A stretch of 64,000 nucleotides of DNA from Candidatus Parcubacteria bacterium (lineage in GTDB: Bacteria; Patescibacteriota; Patescibacteriia; CAIXNZ01), in assembly GCA_026395685.1 (NCBI GenBank), contig JAPLYG010000016.1, forward strand, positions 1,035 through 65,034. Reading direction: 5' to 3'. This document shows, piece after piece, positions 2,659 to 52,576 of this stretch. A program made the translations under genes and the position numbers. The notes beneath the pieces are model-generated. The model saw only the letters and a list, made by a program, of their open reading frames with translations. It was not told the origin of the DNA and ran no database searches. Positions within the stretch are counted from its first letter, which is position 1, and every line of letters starts with the position of its first letter.

Positions 2659-2688
2659 AAATTTATAATTAATTATTATTGATACTGG

Positions 2689-2739
2689 CTTTGACACTTT
2701 AGTGTCAAAGCTACGACCTCAAACACTAAAGTGTTTGAG
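2689..2739. repeat. Pair of 9-bp-stem hairpins (CTTTGACAC-TTTA-GTGTCAAAG and CTCAAACAC-TAAA-GTGTTTGAG), REP-doublet-like
   Basis: Perfect palindromes read directly; cores ACTTTAGT/ACTAAAGT are inverse of each other. Confidence 0.5.
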
Positions 2740-21973: not shown

Positions 21974-22066
21974 ATAATTTTGATGCTATTTAACTATTAA
22001 TTAATTATATCAAATATTACAAATTAATTATACTAAAAAAGATTGCCAGTTTTGGCAATCTTTTCT

Positions 22067-22195
22067 TGGTGACCCGGCCTGCCTTCGCTTCCTCCTACGC
22101 CAAGACTTATGCGGACAAGAAAGCTTCGGCAGACAGGCTGGGGCTCGAACCCCCGCCTTCATCCCGCGTTGCGGAATTTCGGCGGGCAGGCAGGA
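22067..22195 (-). ncRNA. tRNA-Lys-derived degenerate element: shares ACCA, acceptor 3' strand, T-loop and downstream terminator with tRNA-Lys but has ~60 nt inserted between T-arm and acceptor and no matching 5' acceptor strand
   Basis: 45-bp block (22034-22078) identical to 22226-22271; 17-bp ggctggggctcgaaccc shared; cloverleaf cannot be completed. Confidence 0.4.
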
Positions 22196-22259
22196 CTATT
22201 CTTATTTTGATTGAAGCAGAGGGTCTAAAAAAAGATTGCCAGTTTTGGCAATCTTTTCT

Positions 22260-22335
22260 TGGTGACCCGGCTGGGGCTCGAACCCAGGACCCTCTGCTTA
22301 AAAGGCAGATGCTCTACCGACTGAGCTACCGAGTC
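22260..22335 (-). tRNA. tRNA-Lys (anticodon TTT), CCA encoded
   Basis: Reverse complement folds as GACTCGG-TA-GCTCAGTCGGTAGAGC-...CTTTTAA...-TTCGAGC-...CCGGGTC-A-CCA. Confidence 0.85.
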
Positions 22336-39210: not shown

Positions 39211-39238
39211 CCAAAAAAGAGGGCAAATACCCTCTTTA
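39211..39238 (-). terminator. Rho-independent terminator downstream of mraY (AAGAGGG-caaata-CCCTCTT + T-run)
   Basis: Perfect 7-bp GC-rich stem followed by U-run on minus strand. Confidence 0.55.
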
Positions 39239-39374
39239 AACTTCAACCTTCATACTTCAGACTTTGGCCTTAAAAATATTACTCCTAAATTATATCAGCC
39301 AAAGGCTGATCCGCCTCTGGCGGAAACTTCCAATTGTAATTTTACATTTTACATTTTGCACTTTAAACTTTTAA

Positions 39375-40826: not shown

Positions 40827-40954
40827 GGATTTAAGTCTAAAGTTAAAAGTCTAAAGTCTAAAGTTGTGAGAATTTACTTTATTTTAGCACAATACCTCTA
40901 AAAATAAAAGTCCCGATTTCCCAGAGTTCTTATTTGTATTCTAAATATTTTTAC

Positions 40955-42214
40955 TCAATTTTTTCGTTTTAAGGGCGACATTTCACGCAGCCTTTTTACA
41001 ATAGCCGGCAAAACTTCGATTACCCTGTCAATTTCCTTGGCAGTAGTTCCCTTGCCCAGGGTAAAGCGCAAAGATGCGTGGCAATCTTCAGCCGGAATAT
41101 CCATGGCGCGTAAAACATGAGAGGGTTCCAAGGAGCCGGAAGCGCAGGCTGAACCAGTAGAAACCGCAATACCTTCCAAATCAAGCATCAAAAGCATACT
41201 CTCCCCTTCAGCACCTAAAAAGCTGATATTCGCATTGCCTGGTACGCGTTTTTCCAAATTACCGTTAATTTGAGTATCGGGAATTTTCTTCGTTAAACCC
41301 GCAATCAATTTATCCCTTAATTTTCCAATTTTATCGTTTATTTCTGTTTGCTCTTTATTTACCAATTCTATTGCCACGCCCAAACCGACAATTCCAGCGA
41401 CATTATAAGTCCCCGGCCTGATATTATATTCCTGATGTCCACCAAAAATAATGGACTTAATCGGCGTGCCTTCTTTGATGTACAAAGCTCCAATTCCTTT
41501 GGGTCCGTAAATTTTATGTCCGGAAATTGTAATAAAATCAGTTTTTAAATAATCCGCCTTCATCGGGCAATAATTAACCGCCTGCACTGCATCAGTGTGA
41601 AAATAAATCTTATCATACAAATCCTTCGGACTTCGTACTTCGGACTTCGGCCTTCGTTTTAAGTTCGCCTTTTCAACAATTTCCCCGATTTTACGGATGG
41701 GCTGAATCGTTCCGATCTCATTATTAACATACATAATGGAAACCAAAATCGTATTGTCTTTAATTGCTTCTTTTATTTCATTTATTTTAACAACCCCATT
41801 AGAATCAACATTAACGAAAGTCACTTCAGCTAATCCTTCTTTTACCAATTCCTGACAAACCTCCAAAATTGCCGGGTGTTCAATTTTTGAAGTAATAATA
41901 TGAAATTTCTTGTCCTCCGGAGCTTTAGCGGAGGAGGATTCTTTTTTAGCGTTGCGAAATGCCATGAGCAAGCCGCGCAAGACCAGATTATTGCTTTCAG
42001 TCGCTCCGGAAGTAAAAATTACCTCCTTGAACTTGCAGCCAAAAAGATTAGCCAGCTGTTCCCTGGCCCAATCAACACCTTTAATCGCTTCTTGACCAAA
42101 GGAATGCAATGAGGACGCATTACCAAAAATATCAGTAAGATATGGCTGCATTTTTTTTAGAACTTGCGGATCAAGCGGCGTAGTCGCAGAATGATCCAAA
42201 TATATCTTTTCCAT
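40955..42214 (-). CDS. iscS: Cysteine desulfurase (IscS/NifS class V aminotransferase) with short repeat-encoded insertion
   Basis: 'ITSKIEHPAILE', PLP-lysine 'ISGHKIYGPKGIGALYI', active-site 'SGSACAS'; ~19-aa insertion encoded by ACTTCG microrepeat at 41620-41660. Confidence 0.8.
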   Translation of the reverse strand: MEKIYLDHSATTPLDPQVLKKMQPYLTDIFGNASSLHSFGQEAIKGVDWAREQLANLFGCKFKEVIFTSGATESNNLVLRGLLMAFRNAKKESSSAKAPEDKKFHIITSKIEHPAILEVCQELVKEGLAEVTFVNVDSNGVVKINEIKEAIKDNTILVSIMYVNNEIGTIQPIRKIGEIVEKANLKRRPKSEVRSPKDLYDKIYFHTDAVQAVNYCPMKADYLKTDFITISGHKIYGPKGIGALYIKEGTPIKSIIFGGHQEYNIRPGTYNVAGIVGLGVAIELVNKEQTEINDKIGKLRDKLIAGLTKKIPDTQINGNLEKRVPGNANISFLGAEGESMLLMLDLEGIAVSTGSACASGSLEPSHVLRAMDIPAEDCHASLRFTLGKGTTAKEIDRVIEVLPAIVKRLREMSPLKRKN

Positions 42215-42335
42215 ATTAGTTTATTAGTTAATTGGTTAATCAGTTTATTAGTCAAGCAACCTTATACAACTTTATAAAACCTAATACAACCTCATATAAC
42301 TTCCTTTTTCATACTTCGGCCTTCATCCTTAGGCC

Positions 42336-42560
42336 TTAAACCGCAATCACCTCTTTGACGCCTTTAACCTCTTTTTTAATCTGAGCCTCAATCCCCATCT
42401 TCAAAGTCATCTGCGACATGGGACAGTGAGCGCAGTGGCCGAGCAATTTAACTTTCACAATCCCCTTTTTTTCATCAACATCAACCAACTCCACATCCCC
42501 TCCATCCATCTGAAGTCCCGGCCTGACTTCTTCTAAAATTTTCTCAATTTGTTTTTTCAT
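42336..42560 (-). CDS. Nfu/NifU C-terminal-domain Fe-S carrier protein
   Basis: 'VRPGLQMDGGDVELVDVD...GHCAHCPMSQMTLK' CxxC Nfu signature. Confidence 0.7.
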   Translation of the reverse strand: MKKQIEKILEEVRPGLQMDGGDVELVDVDEKKGIVKVKLLGHCAHCPMSQMTLKMGIEAQIKKEVKGVKEVIAV

Positions 42561-42577
42561 AATGTTGTATTATTACA

Positions 42578-43149
42578 GGGGACTTTAGTCCCCGTTTGAT
42601 TTATTTAATATTTATATTTTTCAACAGGCAAATTCAATTCCCAATTTAAATTTTTCACATTTCCAATAATTTCCAAGATTGATTTTTTCTCATATTTCGT
42701 TAACAAATTATTATAATTTGAATACTCATATTTATTTAGATCATAAATATCCTCAACCAATCCATGTTTCCAGGGGTTCCCCAGTATATACCCCATAACC
42801 TTATAATATGCTTCCTGATTAAAAACATTACTAATATAATAACTATCCCAAATTGGTTTTGATATATTTTCCAGTAAAAAAGAAACACCACCATTAATCT
42901 TTTGAATAATTTTTGGCACATCCTTACCAGTCTTTAAGTAAAAAAGAATATGGTAATGATTCCTTAAAATACAATAAGAGTCATAAGAAAAATCATAAAT
43001 TGATTGCATTGATAAAATTTTTCCCAAAAGAAGCTTCCTATTATCTTCATTCTCAAAACAATTCAGACCATCAATAGTTCTACTTGTTAAAAAATAATAG
43101 TTATAGTCAAGATAGAATTTCATATTGTCTTACGCAGACTAAAGTCTGC
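42578..43149 (-). mobile_element. IS200/IS605-family-like unit: Y1 (HUH) transposase/RAYT-like ORF (42605-43123) flanked by subterminal hairpins GGGGACTTTAGTCCCC (42578-42593) and GCAGACTAAAGTCTGC (43134-43149)
   Basis: Translation shows 'NHYHIL' HUH motif, 'YILGNPWKHGLV' and C-terminal Tyr-rich helix typical of IS200-like/REP-associated tyrosine transposases; flanking palindromes share the GACT-TTA-AGTC core in opposite orientation. Confidence 0.5.
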
Positions 43150-43163
43150 TATAATAATTCATA

Positions 43164-43586
43164 TTAACAGTGCGCATGTTCCTCTTCTTCCAATTTTTCC
43201 GTAAAAGTCTCCCCGCGATAATCAGCCACGGCTTTTTTCAGTCCAGCTGCCGCCAAAACAGAACAGTGAATTTTTTCTTTGGGCATACCGCCAAGCTTTT
43301 CCGCAATCTGCTCGCGGGTAATTTTTAAAGCCTCTTCAATTGTTTTACCTTTTGCCATTTCAGTCAGCATCGAAGATGAGGCAATGGCAGCGCCGCAGCC
43401 TAGAGTTTGGAATTTAATGTCTTTGATAATTTCTTCGCCTTTCTCGTTTTTATCAACCTCAATATAAATCTTCATCATATCACCGCAGACAGGATTACCT
43501 ACTTCGCCCACGCCATCAGGACTTGCTAATTCGCCCTGATTGCGCGGATTTTTGAAATGGTCCATTAAAATTTGAGTGTATTGCAT
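43164..43586 (-). CDS. iscU: Fe-S cluster scaffold IscU
   Basis: 'GNPVCGDMMKIYI', 'LGCGAAIASSS', 'HC' C-terminus. Confidence 0.85.
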   Translation of the reverse strand: MQYTQILMDHFKNPRNQGELASPDGVGEVGNPVCGDMMKIYIEVDKNEKGEEIIKDIKFQTLGCGAAIASSSMLTEMAKGKTIEEALKITREQIAEKLGGMPKEKIHCSVLAAAGLKKAVADYRGETFTEKLEEEEHAHC

Positions 43587-43674
43587 ATTTTTTAAGGCCG
43601 AGGTCTCAAGGATGAAGTCTGGATTATTTTATAATCTTCAAATTACTTCATACTTCGTACTTCGTGCTTCATAC

Positions 43675-44118
43675 TTATTTAATTAAATCGCTTAATTTAA
43701 TTGAATTCAAAGTTTTACTAATGCCCTGATCCAGCTTTTGCCACACAATCTTACTCTGGCAATCACATCCTTTTTTTGCGCATAAACCGCCGATCCCGGC
43801 GCAAACATATGGGGCCAAACTACCTTCTAACGCTGTAAGAATATCCTTTACTGAAATCCTTAGCGCAGGCTTGGCTAATTTATATCCGCCGTTAACGCCT
43901 TTAACACTCACCACTATCTTGGCCCTTTTCAATTTGGCAAAAAGACGCTCCAAATAAGCCAAAGAGATTTTTTCTTCCTTGGCAATTTTAGCTAGTGAAT
44001 AAGGCACATTTCCCTGATTTTTCGACAAATTTACCAATGCCCTTAATCCGTATTCAGATTTTGTGGAAAACATCATATCTTTCGGCCTTTGGACTTCATC
44101 CTTCGGCCTTAATTCCAA
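43675..44118 (-). CDS. iscR: Rrf2-family regulator (IscR-like) with C-terminal Cys cluster
   Basis: 'SEYGLRALVNL' Rrf2 HTH; 'CAGIGGLCAKKGCDC'. Confidence 0.75.
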   Translation of the reverse strand: MELRPKDEVQRPKDMMFSTKSEYGLRALVNLSKNQGNVPYSLAKIAKEEKISLAYLERLFAKLKRAKIVVSVKGVNGGYKLAKPALRISVKDILTALEGSLAPYVCAGIGGLCAKKGCDCQSKIVWQKLDQGISKTLNSIKLSDLIK

Positions 44119-44307
44119 CCAATTTAGTTGGTATTCATATTATATCCGCTTATAACCAGATAGTCAAGCCAACTTATTGACAGCCATTTCAAAATCTGTT
44201 AAACTATTTTTATAAAATATTAAGGTGCAGAGGCAGTTTACGGCAGACGCTTTACCGTCAGACGAAACAGCCATCAAAACCTTTTAACAATTAATGATCT
44301 AAAAGAT

Positions 44308-50307: not shown

Positions 50308-51936
50308 TCAAGAGATCGCCGCCTTAATAAACTCTTTAAAAAGCGGATGCGGCTTCAACGGTCTTGACTTGAATTCAGGATGAAATTGTGTGGCCACAAA
50401 AAATTTATGATTCGGCACTTCAATGATTTCTACTAAATTATTATCAGGAGAAGTTCCGGCAATGCGCAAACCTTTTTCTTCCAGTAACTTCCTGTATTGA
50501 TTATTAAATTCATAACGATGGCGATGGCGTTCGGAAATTTCTTTTTGTCCATATGCTTTATAGCTGACAGAATCTTTATTTAAAACACAAGGATAAGCTC
50601 CCAAGCGCATAGTACCGCCCATTTTCTTGGTTTTAATTTTCTCAATTTGATCTTCCATAGTATGAACCACAGGGTAAGGCGTATTTTCATCAACTTCCGG
50701 AGTATTAGCATTTTCCAAACCAGCCACATGGCGGGCAAATTCAATTGTCGCCAATTGCATGCCATAGCATAAGCCTAAATATGGAATATTATTTTCCCGA
50801 CAATATTTAATAGCCTGAATTTTGCCTTCAATGCCTCTCATGCCAAAACCGCCCGGCACAATAATGCCGTCGTATTTTTTTAATTCAGCCAGTTTGGCAG
50901 GATCTTTTTCGTATTCCTCAGAATTTATCCAGCAAAGTACGGGCTGACGATTATTGGCCCAAGCCGCATGCTTAATTGCTTCAATTACTGAAATGTAAGA
51001 ATCTGACAAAGTAAAATTGCCTGTGGCAAAATATTTGCCGACAATGCCGATATTTACTTTTTCTTTGCTGGCCTTAATTACTTCCACCAATTTTTCCCAA
51101 TCTTTCAGATCTTTCCCCTTATCTTTTAAGCCAAACTTTTCCAGAATTCTATTGCCAAGCTCGTCTTTCTCAAAATTTAAAGGAATTTCATAAATAGTAT
51201 CGACATCCGGGGCTGAAATGGCGTTTCCTTTTGGTATATTACAAAAAGTAGCCAATTTTTCCTTGCGTACTTCATCCAAAGGAACCTCTGCCCGGCATAA
51301 AATAAAATCGGGAAAAATACCAGTGCTGTTTAAGGCACGTACGGCTGTTTGCGTTGGCTTAGTCTTCATTTCACCTATTTTTGAAGGTATGGGCAGATAG
51401 CTGACCAGAATGACAATAACATCATTGGGCGTTTCGGTTCTCATCATGCGGGCTGCTTCCAAAAACAAAATATTCTGATATTCGCCGACAGTACCGCCGA
51501 TTTCAATAATAGTAAAATCAGATTTTGCCAATTCAGAAGCTTTTTTAATACGGTTAATGACTTCCTGCGGCACATGTGGCACAACTTCCACGCATTTTCC
51601 GCCATATTCTAAATTCCTTTCCCGCTGAATCACGCTTAAATAAACACGACCGGTTGTCATATAATTTGTTGACAGAATATCCTGATCTAAAAATCTTTCA
51701 TAATTACCGATATCCTGGTCGGTTTCATCGCCGTCATCAGTTACAAAAACTTCGCCGTGTTCAGTCGGATTCATTGTTCCGGCATCAACATTGATATAGG
51801 GATCAATTTTAATAGCTGTAACTTTATAGCCTTTGCTTTGTAAAATTTTACCGATTGAAGCGCAGGAAACACCCTTGCCTACTCCGGACATCACGCCACC
51901 GGCAACAAAAATGTATTTGGGGGTCATATCTTCCAA
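50308..51936 (-). CDS. pyrG: CTP synthase
   Basis: 'YIFVAGGVMSGVGKG' synthetase domain, C-terminal class-I glutamine amidotransferase 'GLCYGMQ'. Confidence 0.9.
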   Translation of the reverse strand: MEDMTPKYIFVAGGVMSGVGKGVSCASIGKILQSKGYKVTAIKIDPYINVDAGTMNPTEHGEVFVTDDGDETDQDIGNYERFLDQDILSTNYMTTGRVYLSVIQRERNLEYGGKCVEVVPHVPQEVINRIKKASELAKSDFTIIEIGGTVGEYQNILFLEAARMMRTETPNDVIVILVSYLPIPSKIGEMKTKPTQTAVRALNSTGIFPDFILCRAEVPLDEVRKEKLATFCNIPKGNAISAPDVDTIYEIPLNFEKDELGNRILEKFGLKDKGKDLKDWEKLVEVIKASKEKVNIGIVGKYFATGNFTLSDSYISVIEAIKHAAWANNRQPVLCWINSEEYEKDPAKLAELKKYDGIIVPGGFGMRGIEGKIQAIKYCRENNIPYLGLCYGMQLATIEFARHVAGLENANTPEVDENTPYPVVHTMEDQIEKIKTKKMGGTMRLGAYPCVLNKDSVSYKAYGQKEISERHRHRYEFNNQYRKLLEEKGLRIAGTSPDNNLVEIIEVPNHKFFVATQFHPEFKSRPLKPHPLFKEFIKAAIS

Positions 51937-52024
51937 AATTAAAAATTAAAAATTTAAAATTAAAAATTGCCGAAAGTAATTTTTAAATTTAAGTTTTCAA
52001 TCAAGCAACAAAAAAGAGAGGCTA

Positions 52025-52471: not shown

Positions 52472-52576
52472 ATTATTATAAATAAAACATGTTTTGAACT
52501 GTGAGCCTTGAGCATAAAGCTCTAAGCCCCAAGCCCGAAGCTCTAAGCTTACGAAATTATTCTACACTAAAAAATA

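Follow-up and report, generated by a model that had tools for sequence, protein, structure and literature searches.

The window analysed here, a stretch of 64,000 nt from contig JAPLYG010000016.1 of a Candidatus Parcubacteria bacterium (assembly GCA_026395685.1), carries between the genes iscU and nfu of an isc operon a gene of the HUH/Y1 transposase type, which is enclosed by two small hairpins. We consider it probable, at roughly 0.68, that positions 42573-43154 form a compact, REPtron-like unit, namely a gene for a REP-associated tyrosine transposase (RAYT) together with a barely dispersed, non-canonical type of repetitive extragenic palindrome (REP), which has the foot TTAYA and not GT[AG]G. 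A preliminary description of this DNA, made from the letters without database searches, had left undecided whether the unit is a compact insertion sequence (IS) or a domesticated RAYT; this question now leans to the RAYT/REPtron side. The closest characterised relative of the protein is E. coli TnpA_REP, and hairpins of the same type accompany homologous genes in unrelated genomic contexts, mutually inverted at the two ends of the gene.

Results

The protein encoded by the 172-aa open reading frame (ORF) is annotated in the source record simply as 'transposase'. The motifs NHYHIL and GNPWKHGLV, from which its HUH character had been recognized, are located at residues 55-60 and 115-123, and the proposed tyrosine, Y112, falls on a predicted helix. 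The assignment to the IS200 family and RAYTs was borne out when profiles were searched. The Pfam family PF01797 (Y1_Tnp) matched residues 23-107 with 26.0 bits (gathering cut-off 23, E 1.1e-5), and REP_Tyr_transpos was the sole match in the NCBIfam scan (2e-18, 66.6 bits). The latter profile was matched by all 15 aligned homologues (best 2e-25), while transpos_IS200 was matched more weakly and by 8 of the 15 (best 3e-7). When the closest homologues were used for a profile search of the PDB, E. coli TnpA_REP (4ER8) was the single Y1 match (E 1e-7). In this alignment the HUH motif and the YxxxNP helix, in full Y-x-x-x-N-P-x-K-H-G-x-V, coincide with the catalytic motifs of 4ER8. The residues H56, H58 and Y112 are invariant among the 15 homologues.

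An AlphaFold 2 (AF2) model places H56-Y-H58 in a predicted strand (56-62) and Y112 in a predicted helix (103-119). The fold search with this model returned 4ER8 as the best match (E 6e-8, template modelling (TM) scores 0.65/0.68), followed by the TnpA proteins of ISDra2 and IS608 (TM 0.49/0.6) and of IS200. All 27 matches of a Foldseek search against the PDB at E <= 0.001 were Y1 transposases (4ER8, ISDra2, IS608, IS200 and Sulfolobus). The protein has the Y1 fold, its HUH motif is intact, and its tyrosine is of the catalytic type.

Both hairpins beside the gene have perfect 6-bp stems and a TTTA loop and are mutually inverted, the one at 43134-43149 reading GCAGAC-TAAA-GTCTGC on the plus strand. 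They had been described as lying 11 bp from each end of the ORF; this distance holds for the 3' hairpin, 11 nt past the stop codon, but the 5' hairpin lies 10 nt before the ATG. The core that the two were said to share in opposite orientations, GACTTTAGTC, does occur exactly twice in the 64 kb (0.06 expected), and two or more matches were found in none of 100 shuffles. Folded as single-stranded DNA (ssDNA), the hairpins at 42578-42593 and 43134-43149 reach -5.3 and -5.7 kcal/mol with z values of -4.2 and -3.7, respectively. Their 16-mers occur once each in the window. Even with one stem mismatch allowed, the window has only four GC-containing hairpins whose apex is C-TTTA-G or C-TAAA-G, the two flanking ones and two in a doublet.

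Related loci (L001 and following numbers) were gathered by exact-protein look-up and by pattern scans of genome and metagenome contigs, the scans contributing 16 loci on genome contigs and at least 8 on metagenome contigs; this sample is small and not exhaustive. Hairpins of the same type flank the gene in 18 of 19 related loci, mostly from Patescibacteria, and the cognate palindromes are in inverted orientation in the window as well as in L001-L009, L021-L027 and L033-L036. The anatomy shared by these loci consists of the foot TTAYA, a stem of 5-6 bp and a C-TTTA-G loop 5' of the gene, with an inverted copy 3' of it. The genomic contexts are diverse: isc genes, a string of HIT, RF-1 and epimerase genes, glycosyltransferases, a phosphoenolpyruvate (PEP)-utilising enzyme and an LTD-domain protein. 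In L037 and L038, which adjoin an rRNA adenine dimethylase gene, we found imperfect variants with a TAAA loop only.

According to the preliminary description, the proposal would fall if such hairpins were ubiquitous intrinsic terminators without enrichment around the gene. A census over 15 loci counted 50 GC-rich hairpins with TTTA or TAAA loops in the 10.2 kb that lie no more than 350 nt from a gene end versus 3 in the other 145 kb, which corresponds to a ~240-fold enrichment beside the RAYT genes (Poisson p ~1e-39), and the enriched hairpins stand in unrelated contexts. Two of the three distant hairpins are those of the doublet in the window.

For a closer description, 57 distinct hairpins from 19 sources were oriented on their TTTA loop. 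They had been selected for perfect stems, a choice that leaves only the foot, the loop and the identity of the closing pair independent of the selection. The closing C-G pair is present in all 57, and the 5' foot T-T-A-T-A in 43-48 of the 57 at each position; neither was imposed by the selection. The distance between foot and loop is the same for stems of 5 and of 6 bp. Below the closing pair, the two sides of the stem change together (A-T/G-C, G-C/C-G/T-A etc.). Covariation statistics of the stems were not used as evidence because the selection for perfect stems makes such a test circular. The REP-type element is 5'-TTAYA, one variable or pairing base, a variable GC-rich stem of 5 bp, an invariant closing C-G pair and the loop TTTA.

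At most loci the coding strand reads TTTA in the 5' hairpin and TAAA in the inverted 3' hairpin, an orientation that is reversed in L003 and L004. Extra TTTA/TAAA doublets are often stacked beside the homologous genes; the one doublet tested, from L024, forms a single long, REPIN-like hairpin when folded with its feet (-12.5 kcal/mol). The window and L001 have the same 5' hairpin, and their 3' hairpins (GGAGAC..GTCTCC in L001) differ by a single compensatory change from G-C to A-T. The hairpins belong to the gene, for they travel with its homologues into unrelated contexts.

Some records of related loci merit a remark. The homologue call at L036 3440-3956 starts at an internal TTG and yields 151 aa, while an in-frame ATG ~50 nt upstream restores the conserved N-terminus MKYYLDK... 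L005 (CAYNWH010000003.1) and L006 (CAZFGO010000053.1) are titled 'uncultured Gammaproteobacteria'; the loci have 34-39% GC and carry a Patescibacteria-type RAYT (49% and 44% identity) with TTATAC-foot hairpins. The taxonomic label of these two records may be wrong.

Comparison of the isc operon among relatives, which the preliminary description had proposed, found the insert in L001 and not in L029-L032. L001 has the same order iscR-iscU-RAYT-nfu-iscS as the window. Identities between the two are 63% for the RAYT, 86% for IscU, 85% for Nfu, 82% for IscR, 71% for L27 and 59% for a beta-propeller protein. The synonymous divergence (dS) of the RAYT gene is 1.71, compared with 0.89-1.80 for the flanking genes, and its ratio of nonsynonymous to synonymous divergence (dN/dS) is 0.155; the gene is thus as old as the split of the two lineages and under purifying selection. 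A second syntenic pair is formed by L033 (3465-4013) and L034 (1288-1847), with RAYT proteins that are 65% and neighbours that are 61-89% identical. The pair shares the order HIT, RF-1-domain protein, hypothetical protein, RAYT, epimerase and VanZ, and its intergenic gaps of 16-40 nt are nearly filled by the two hairpins.

In L029, L030, L031 and L032, with IscU 96, 94, 91 and 91% identical to that of the window, respectively, the iscU-nfu spacer is empty and 58-71 nt long. No hairpins of the RAYT type were found in the spacer or elsewhere in the 1.9-8.4 kb of these contigs. The spacers of L031 and L032 are identical and their isc proteins nearly so; the four empty contigs hence represent at least three relatives. 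A neighbour-joining (NJ) tree of IscU and IscS placed L001 basal to the window and the empty relatives in 184 of 200 bootstraps, and for L27, IscR, IscU and Nfu alike the window is closer to the empty relatives than to L001. These sequence comparisons favour, as the simplest history, a unit that was present in the ancestor and was later lost as a whole in some lineages. A closer RAYT was not found among 5.8 billion proteins. Close homologues were absent from plasmid and phage collections, where two remote plasmid matches at 27-28% identity and no phage match were obtained.

In the distant L024 (IscU 59% identical) iscU is directly followed by a RAYT gene from another subclade, which makes 2 of ~13 independent contexts; such a coincidence has a chance of ~0.06-0.12, and we therefore claim no preference for iscU sites. 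A possible decayed REP scar in the empty spacers of L030 and L031 (GTCTAAAGT, TAAAGTC) was rejected because heptamer arrays are a general spacer feature here: the same AAGTCTA array fills the spacer between iscS and a 128-aa gene in the window and in L029-L031. Finally, the ends of the element could not be read from an alignment of filled with empty sites, as only ~5 nt before the nfu ATG (ACATT) are shared and the rest is unalignable.

Genomic context of the RAYT-like gene

The features of the locus are compiled in Table 1. As described initially, the gene is co-directional with its neighbours inside an isc operon: the Rrf2, NifU_N, NifU and class-V aminotransferase genes all lie on the minus strand. 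No strong promoter-like site was found upstream of the RAYT ORF. The site upstream of iscR, a consensus match, is the sole strong candidate for driving the operon including the RAYT gene, which is probably transcribed by read-through from there. Both stable hairpins may also act as protectors of mRNA 3' ends inside the operon.

Table 1. Positions of the RAYT-like gene, its hairpins and other features in the window
Feature	Position	Strand	Remarks
RAYT-like HUH/Y1 gene (TnpA_REP-like)	42605..43123	-	172 aa; homology, predicted fold, invariant residues
5' REP-like hairpin	43134..43154	-	foot TTATA 43150-43154; GCAGAC-TTTA-GTCTGC 43134-43149 (gene strand)
3' REP-like hairpin	42573..42593	+ (TTTA orientation)	foot TTACA 42573-42577; GGGGAC-TTTA-GTCCCC 42578-42593
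iscR (Rrf2 regulator)	43675..44076	-	first operon gene; probable start ATG 44076 (133 aa), as in relatives
iscU (NifU_N scaffold)	43164..43586	-	upstream neighbour of RAYT gene; 1.2e-47
nfu (NifU C-terminal-type domain)	42336..42560	-	downstream neighbour of RAYT gene; 2.2e-28
iscS (class-V aminotransferase / cysteine desulfurase)	40955..42214	-	last isc gene; 6.4e-77
Promoter-like site TTGACT-17-TATAAT	44139..44167	-	upstream of iscR; 11/12, consensus match only
Hairpin doublet GCTTTGACAC-TTTA-GTGTCAAAGC / CTCAAACAC-TAAA-GTGTTTGAG	2688..2739		between two co-directional minus-strand genes

Discussion

The locus resembles the REPtron of E. coli (TnpA_REP, also YafM or RayT; 4ER8; PMC3479197, PMC6006769) in several respects. 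The two proteins share the HUH-Y1 fold, TnpA_REP being the best match of the window protein in sequence and in fold, and the Y-x-x-x-N-P-x-K-H-G-x-V segment and the other catalytic motifs align. In both systems a single gene lies between small, inverted hairpins whose 5' single-stranded foot is conserved, doublets occur next to the gene, and inheritance looks vertical with occasional loss. The mainly vertical inheritance and purifying selection that are typical of RAYTs are indicated here by the two syntenic pairs, by dS and by dN/dS. The differences are that the proteins are only ~19% identical and the window protein scores below the equivalog cut-off, that the foot is TTAYA instead of GTAG, and that the E. 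coli REPs are long imperfect palindromes whereas here perfect stems of only 5-6 bp carry a TTTA tetraloop throughout. Moreover, the window has one hairpin per side, nothing points to dispersed copies in the hundreds, the host belongs to the Patescibacteria and has a reduced genome, and the gene is situated inside an operon.

Other described groups come close as well. The atypical, REPtron-like TnpA_Y1 groups that Quentin et al. 2018 described (subclass 2.6 and class 3, the latter with a CnGA foot) stand between IS and REPtron (PMC6006769). They, too, comprise Y1 genes flanked by non-canonical structures without GT[AG]G, and subclass 2.5 has a constrained total length of foot plus stem, to which the fixed distance between foot and loop is comparable here (PMC6006769). 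Foot sequence, loop and host phyla are different, however, and the clade of the window could not be placed in the subclass scheme; the text of that survey, which was based on complete genomes, mentions neither Parcubacteria nor Patescibacteria (PMC6006769). With the REPIN-RAYT systems of Pseudomonas and Enterobacteria (Bertels and Rainey; PMC3116915, PMC5581495) the locus shares a vertically inherited RAYT flanked by its elements, here with one copy in the 64-kb window, and inverted REP doublets that fold into one long hairpin, as in L024. There, tens to hundreds of REPINs occur per genome, whereas here nearly all copies lie within 350 nt of the gene. In this scarcity the clade resembles RAYT Groups 1 and 4, with low counts of flanking 16-mers (12 and 14 occurrences), more than Groups 2 and 3 (PMC5581495).

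Several points weigh against the assignment to a REPtron-like locus. With 66.6 bits the window protein misses the equivalog cut-off of NCBIfam NF047646 (80 bits), and by the NCBI rule it is a divergent relative and no equivalog. The AF2 model is of moderate confidence (pLDDT 71, 5-sequence alignment), and the enzymatic activity of the protein is predicted by analogy. The canonical REP has a 5' GT[AG]G foot (PMC6006769), and here the foot is TTATA or TTACA in 43-48 of the 57 hairpins. In our reading of the 4ER8 profile alignment, W92 aligns with W94 of E. coli, but the residues opposite Q95, E100, H101 and R104, which are listed as GTAG-reading residues of TnpA_REP (PMC6006769), appear to be different. 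These differences fit a different foot. Dispersal of the hairpins, the hallmark of REPs, was not seen in the sequence read (3 of 53 hairpins lie farther than 350 nt from a gene, in 145 kb of flanks), and the only other doublet in the 64-kb window, at 2688-2739, is without a TTAYA foot. The host tree was built by NJ from isc genes only, with 354 aligned columns shared with L024. Lastly, the presence or absence of the whole hairpin-gene-hairpin unit in near relatives is also what would be expected of an insertion sequence.

This last point leads to the alternative of an active compact IS200-like IS of ~580 bp, in which hairpin-tnpA-hairpin is the transposon. It would have inserted independently in the lineages of the window and L001 or moved between them, and the gene-less doublets would be derivatives similar to miniature inverted-repeat transposable elements (MITEs) or palindrome-associated transposable elements (PATEs). 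Superfamily and fold agree with the TnpA proteins of IS608, ISDra2 and IS200 (Foldseek E 1e-5 to 1e-4), 8 of the 15 homologues also match transpos_IS200, the element measures ~0.6 kb with subterminal hairpins near the ORF ends, and filled sites (window, L001) as well as empty sites (L029-L032) exist among relatives, hairpins included. The same layout with fixed short distances at ~13 contexts means that the hairpins moved with the gene, and the homologue downstream of iscU in L024 belongs to another subclade. The likeness to the LE/RE hairpins recognised by TnpA that had been suggested for the window is nevertheless partial: the hairpins are near the ORF ends, but they are inverted and hence present the TTAYA-stem-TTTA form on opposite strands, in the window and at nearly all homologous loci, instead of being co-oriented on the top strand. 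Peel-and-paste transposition of IS200/IS605 requires both ends on one strand (PMC6006769), so excision of the gene-bearing unit as a single strand is not expected, and this is the main argument against the IS. Further objections are the single copy in 64 kb without near-identical copies of the unit, the lack of tnpB, a sequence and fold closer to TnpA_REP than to the TnpA of IS608 or ISDra2, and the old synteny, with a dS equal to that of the host genes and two syntenic pairs that persist at 60-90% protein divergence. The polarity of the host tree favours loss, and two of ~13 sites may coincide by chance (~0.06-0.12). We regard an active IS as unlikely.

A Y1 protein exapted for a host function, in the operon or in the handling of ssDNA or RNA, would explain the purifying selection (dN/dS 0.155), the long residence in an essential operon in two lineages and beside iscU in a third, and the near absence of dispersed hairpin copies. 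Its co-direction in tight operons at most loci and the lack of a strong promoter of its own would also agree; the hairpins would be operators or signals for mRNA processing or stabilisation, and DNA mobilisation would have ceased. Yet the catalytic HUH and tyrosine residues are invariant, most homologues reside away from isc genes, the gene is dispensable in close relatives, and the local stacks of doublets beside many homologues resemble products of ongoing DNA activity, which makes exaptation improbable. Still less can be said for the idea that the hairpins punctuate the operon as ordinary terminators, attenuators or RNA stabilisers, have no relation to the ORF and resemble one another by coincidence. 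REP-type hairpins do stabilise upstream mRNA in E. coli, and the hairpin at 42578-42593 has a terminator-like score, though on the plus strand only, antisense to the operon. On the operon (minus) strand no T-run follows either hairpin, Rfam gave no match over 42200-43700, and the empty iscU-nfu spacers of the relatives are free of hairpins. As these spacers are empty, and as the same foot, loop and closing pair recur with homologous genes in unrelated contexts at ~240-fold enrichment, the punctuation reading is effectively refuted.

If the REPtron-like reading is correct, the TnpA_REP-like enzyme would, in analogy to TnpA_REP and IS608 TnpA, bind the hairpin as ssDNA, for instance at the replication fork. 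Recognition would involve the closing pair and the TTTA loop together with the TTAYA foot on the 5' side, and the enzyme might cut and rejoin the single strand via a 5'-phosphotyrosine on Y112. Such cleavage and rejoining could generate or mobilise the neighbouring hairpin doublets. A doubtful but conceivable variant is an intermediate between IS and REPtron, an 'autonomous REPIN', in which the RAYT gene sits in the spacer of an A(TTTA)...B(TAAA) doublet. The 0.58-kb unit would then still relocate occasionally, with some preference for sites downstream of iscU, and the stacked doublets would be its non-autonomous offspring. Were this true, the clade in the Patescibacteria would be a minimal tractable model for the origin of RAYTs from IS200-like elements and for Y1 movement with inverted ends.

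To our knowledge, RAYT/REP systems have been studied almost wholly in Proteobacteria with GTAG-type REPs. Among 1.84 billion representatives, the clade around the window protein accounts for 19 clusters with E <= 1e-30 and 281 with E <= 1e-10, and the source names of the relatives are mostly Patescibacteria (Parcubacteria, Falkowbacteria, Magasanikbacteria, Paceibacterota). Some of them bear the Joint Genome Institute (JGI) label 'REP element-mobilizing transposase RayT', so the protein class has already been annotated; our literature search found no paper combining RAYT or REPIN with Patescibacteria. The variant features are the new REP type, the minimal architecture, the position inside an operon and the host with a reduced genome. 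Why single-copy RAYTs persist is an open question (PMC5581495). The Patescibacteria clade brings to it a simple recognition element (TTAYA foot, 5-6-bp stem, TTTA loop), hardly any dispersed copies, tight operons and very small genomes, and it yields a sequence-level prediction of protein-DNA specificity and, for one site, a natural series of relatives with and without the gene. In practical terms the gain is modest: what was annotated as 'transposase' can be named a RAYT-like gene whose hairpins are defined, and one REP type is added.

Additional observations

The hairpin type of the RAYT gene had been reported to recur as a doublet that would fit RAYT-mobilised REPs. The doublet exists, with hairpins at 2688-2711 and 2718-2739, stems of 10 and 9 bp and the loops TTTA and TAAA. 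It has in common with the B-type hairpins of the RAYT family the CAC-TTTA-GTG apex and the TTTA/TAAA inversion, but only the apex of the element is shared; the two hairpins fold separately, and as the TTAYA foot is missing, a RAYT-mobilised REP is not shown. A link of the doublet to the RAYT is possible and unproven.

Many intergenic spacers in this lineage, including those of the isc operon, are made up of short tandem repeats, mostly of period 7. In the window they are found at 40833-40864, 42214-42300, 43644-43676, 39234-39264, 39339-39365, 51935-51968 and 52517-52549, and in relatives at L024 1500-1560 and 2180-2260, L030 4424-4494 and L031 1496-1553. The units, among them AAGTCTA (4.6 copies), TACTTCA (4.7 copies), TATTAGTT (4.9 copies) and CAACCTTATA (4.4 copies), differ among spacers and relatives. 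Two AAGTCTA heptamers in tandem, GTCTAAAGTC, differ from the hairpin apex GACTAAAGTC by a single substitution. An array of CTTCGGA (4.7 copies) lies inside the iscS coding sequence (41624-41656), in a region that varies in length among relatives (IscS 402-423 aa), and a related array of TTCGGCC (4.3 copies) is present in the iscR leader or N-terminal extension (44081-44110).

Elsewhere in the window, a segment of ~45 nt is duplicated at 22030-22076 and 22223-22269. It consists of a hairpin with a 12-bp stem, AAAAGATTGCCA-GTTT-TGGCAATCTTTT, and the first 12 nt of the tRNA-Lys 3' end. Of the two copies, the second adjoins tRNA-Lys(ttt) at 22260-22335 on the minus strand, and the first is followed by ~165 nt of GC-rich sequence without a tRNA or Rfam match. 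The repeated segment could be what an integration or a duplication at the tRNA gene left behind.

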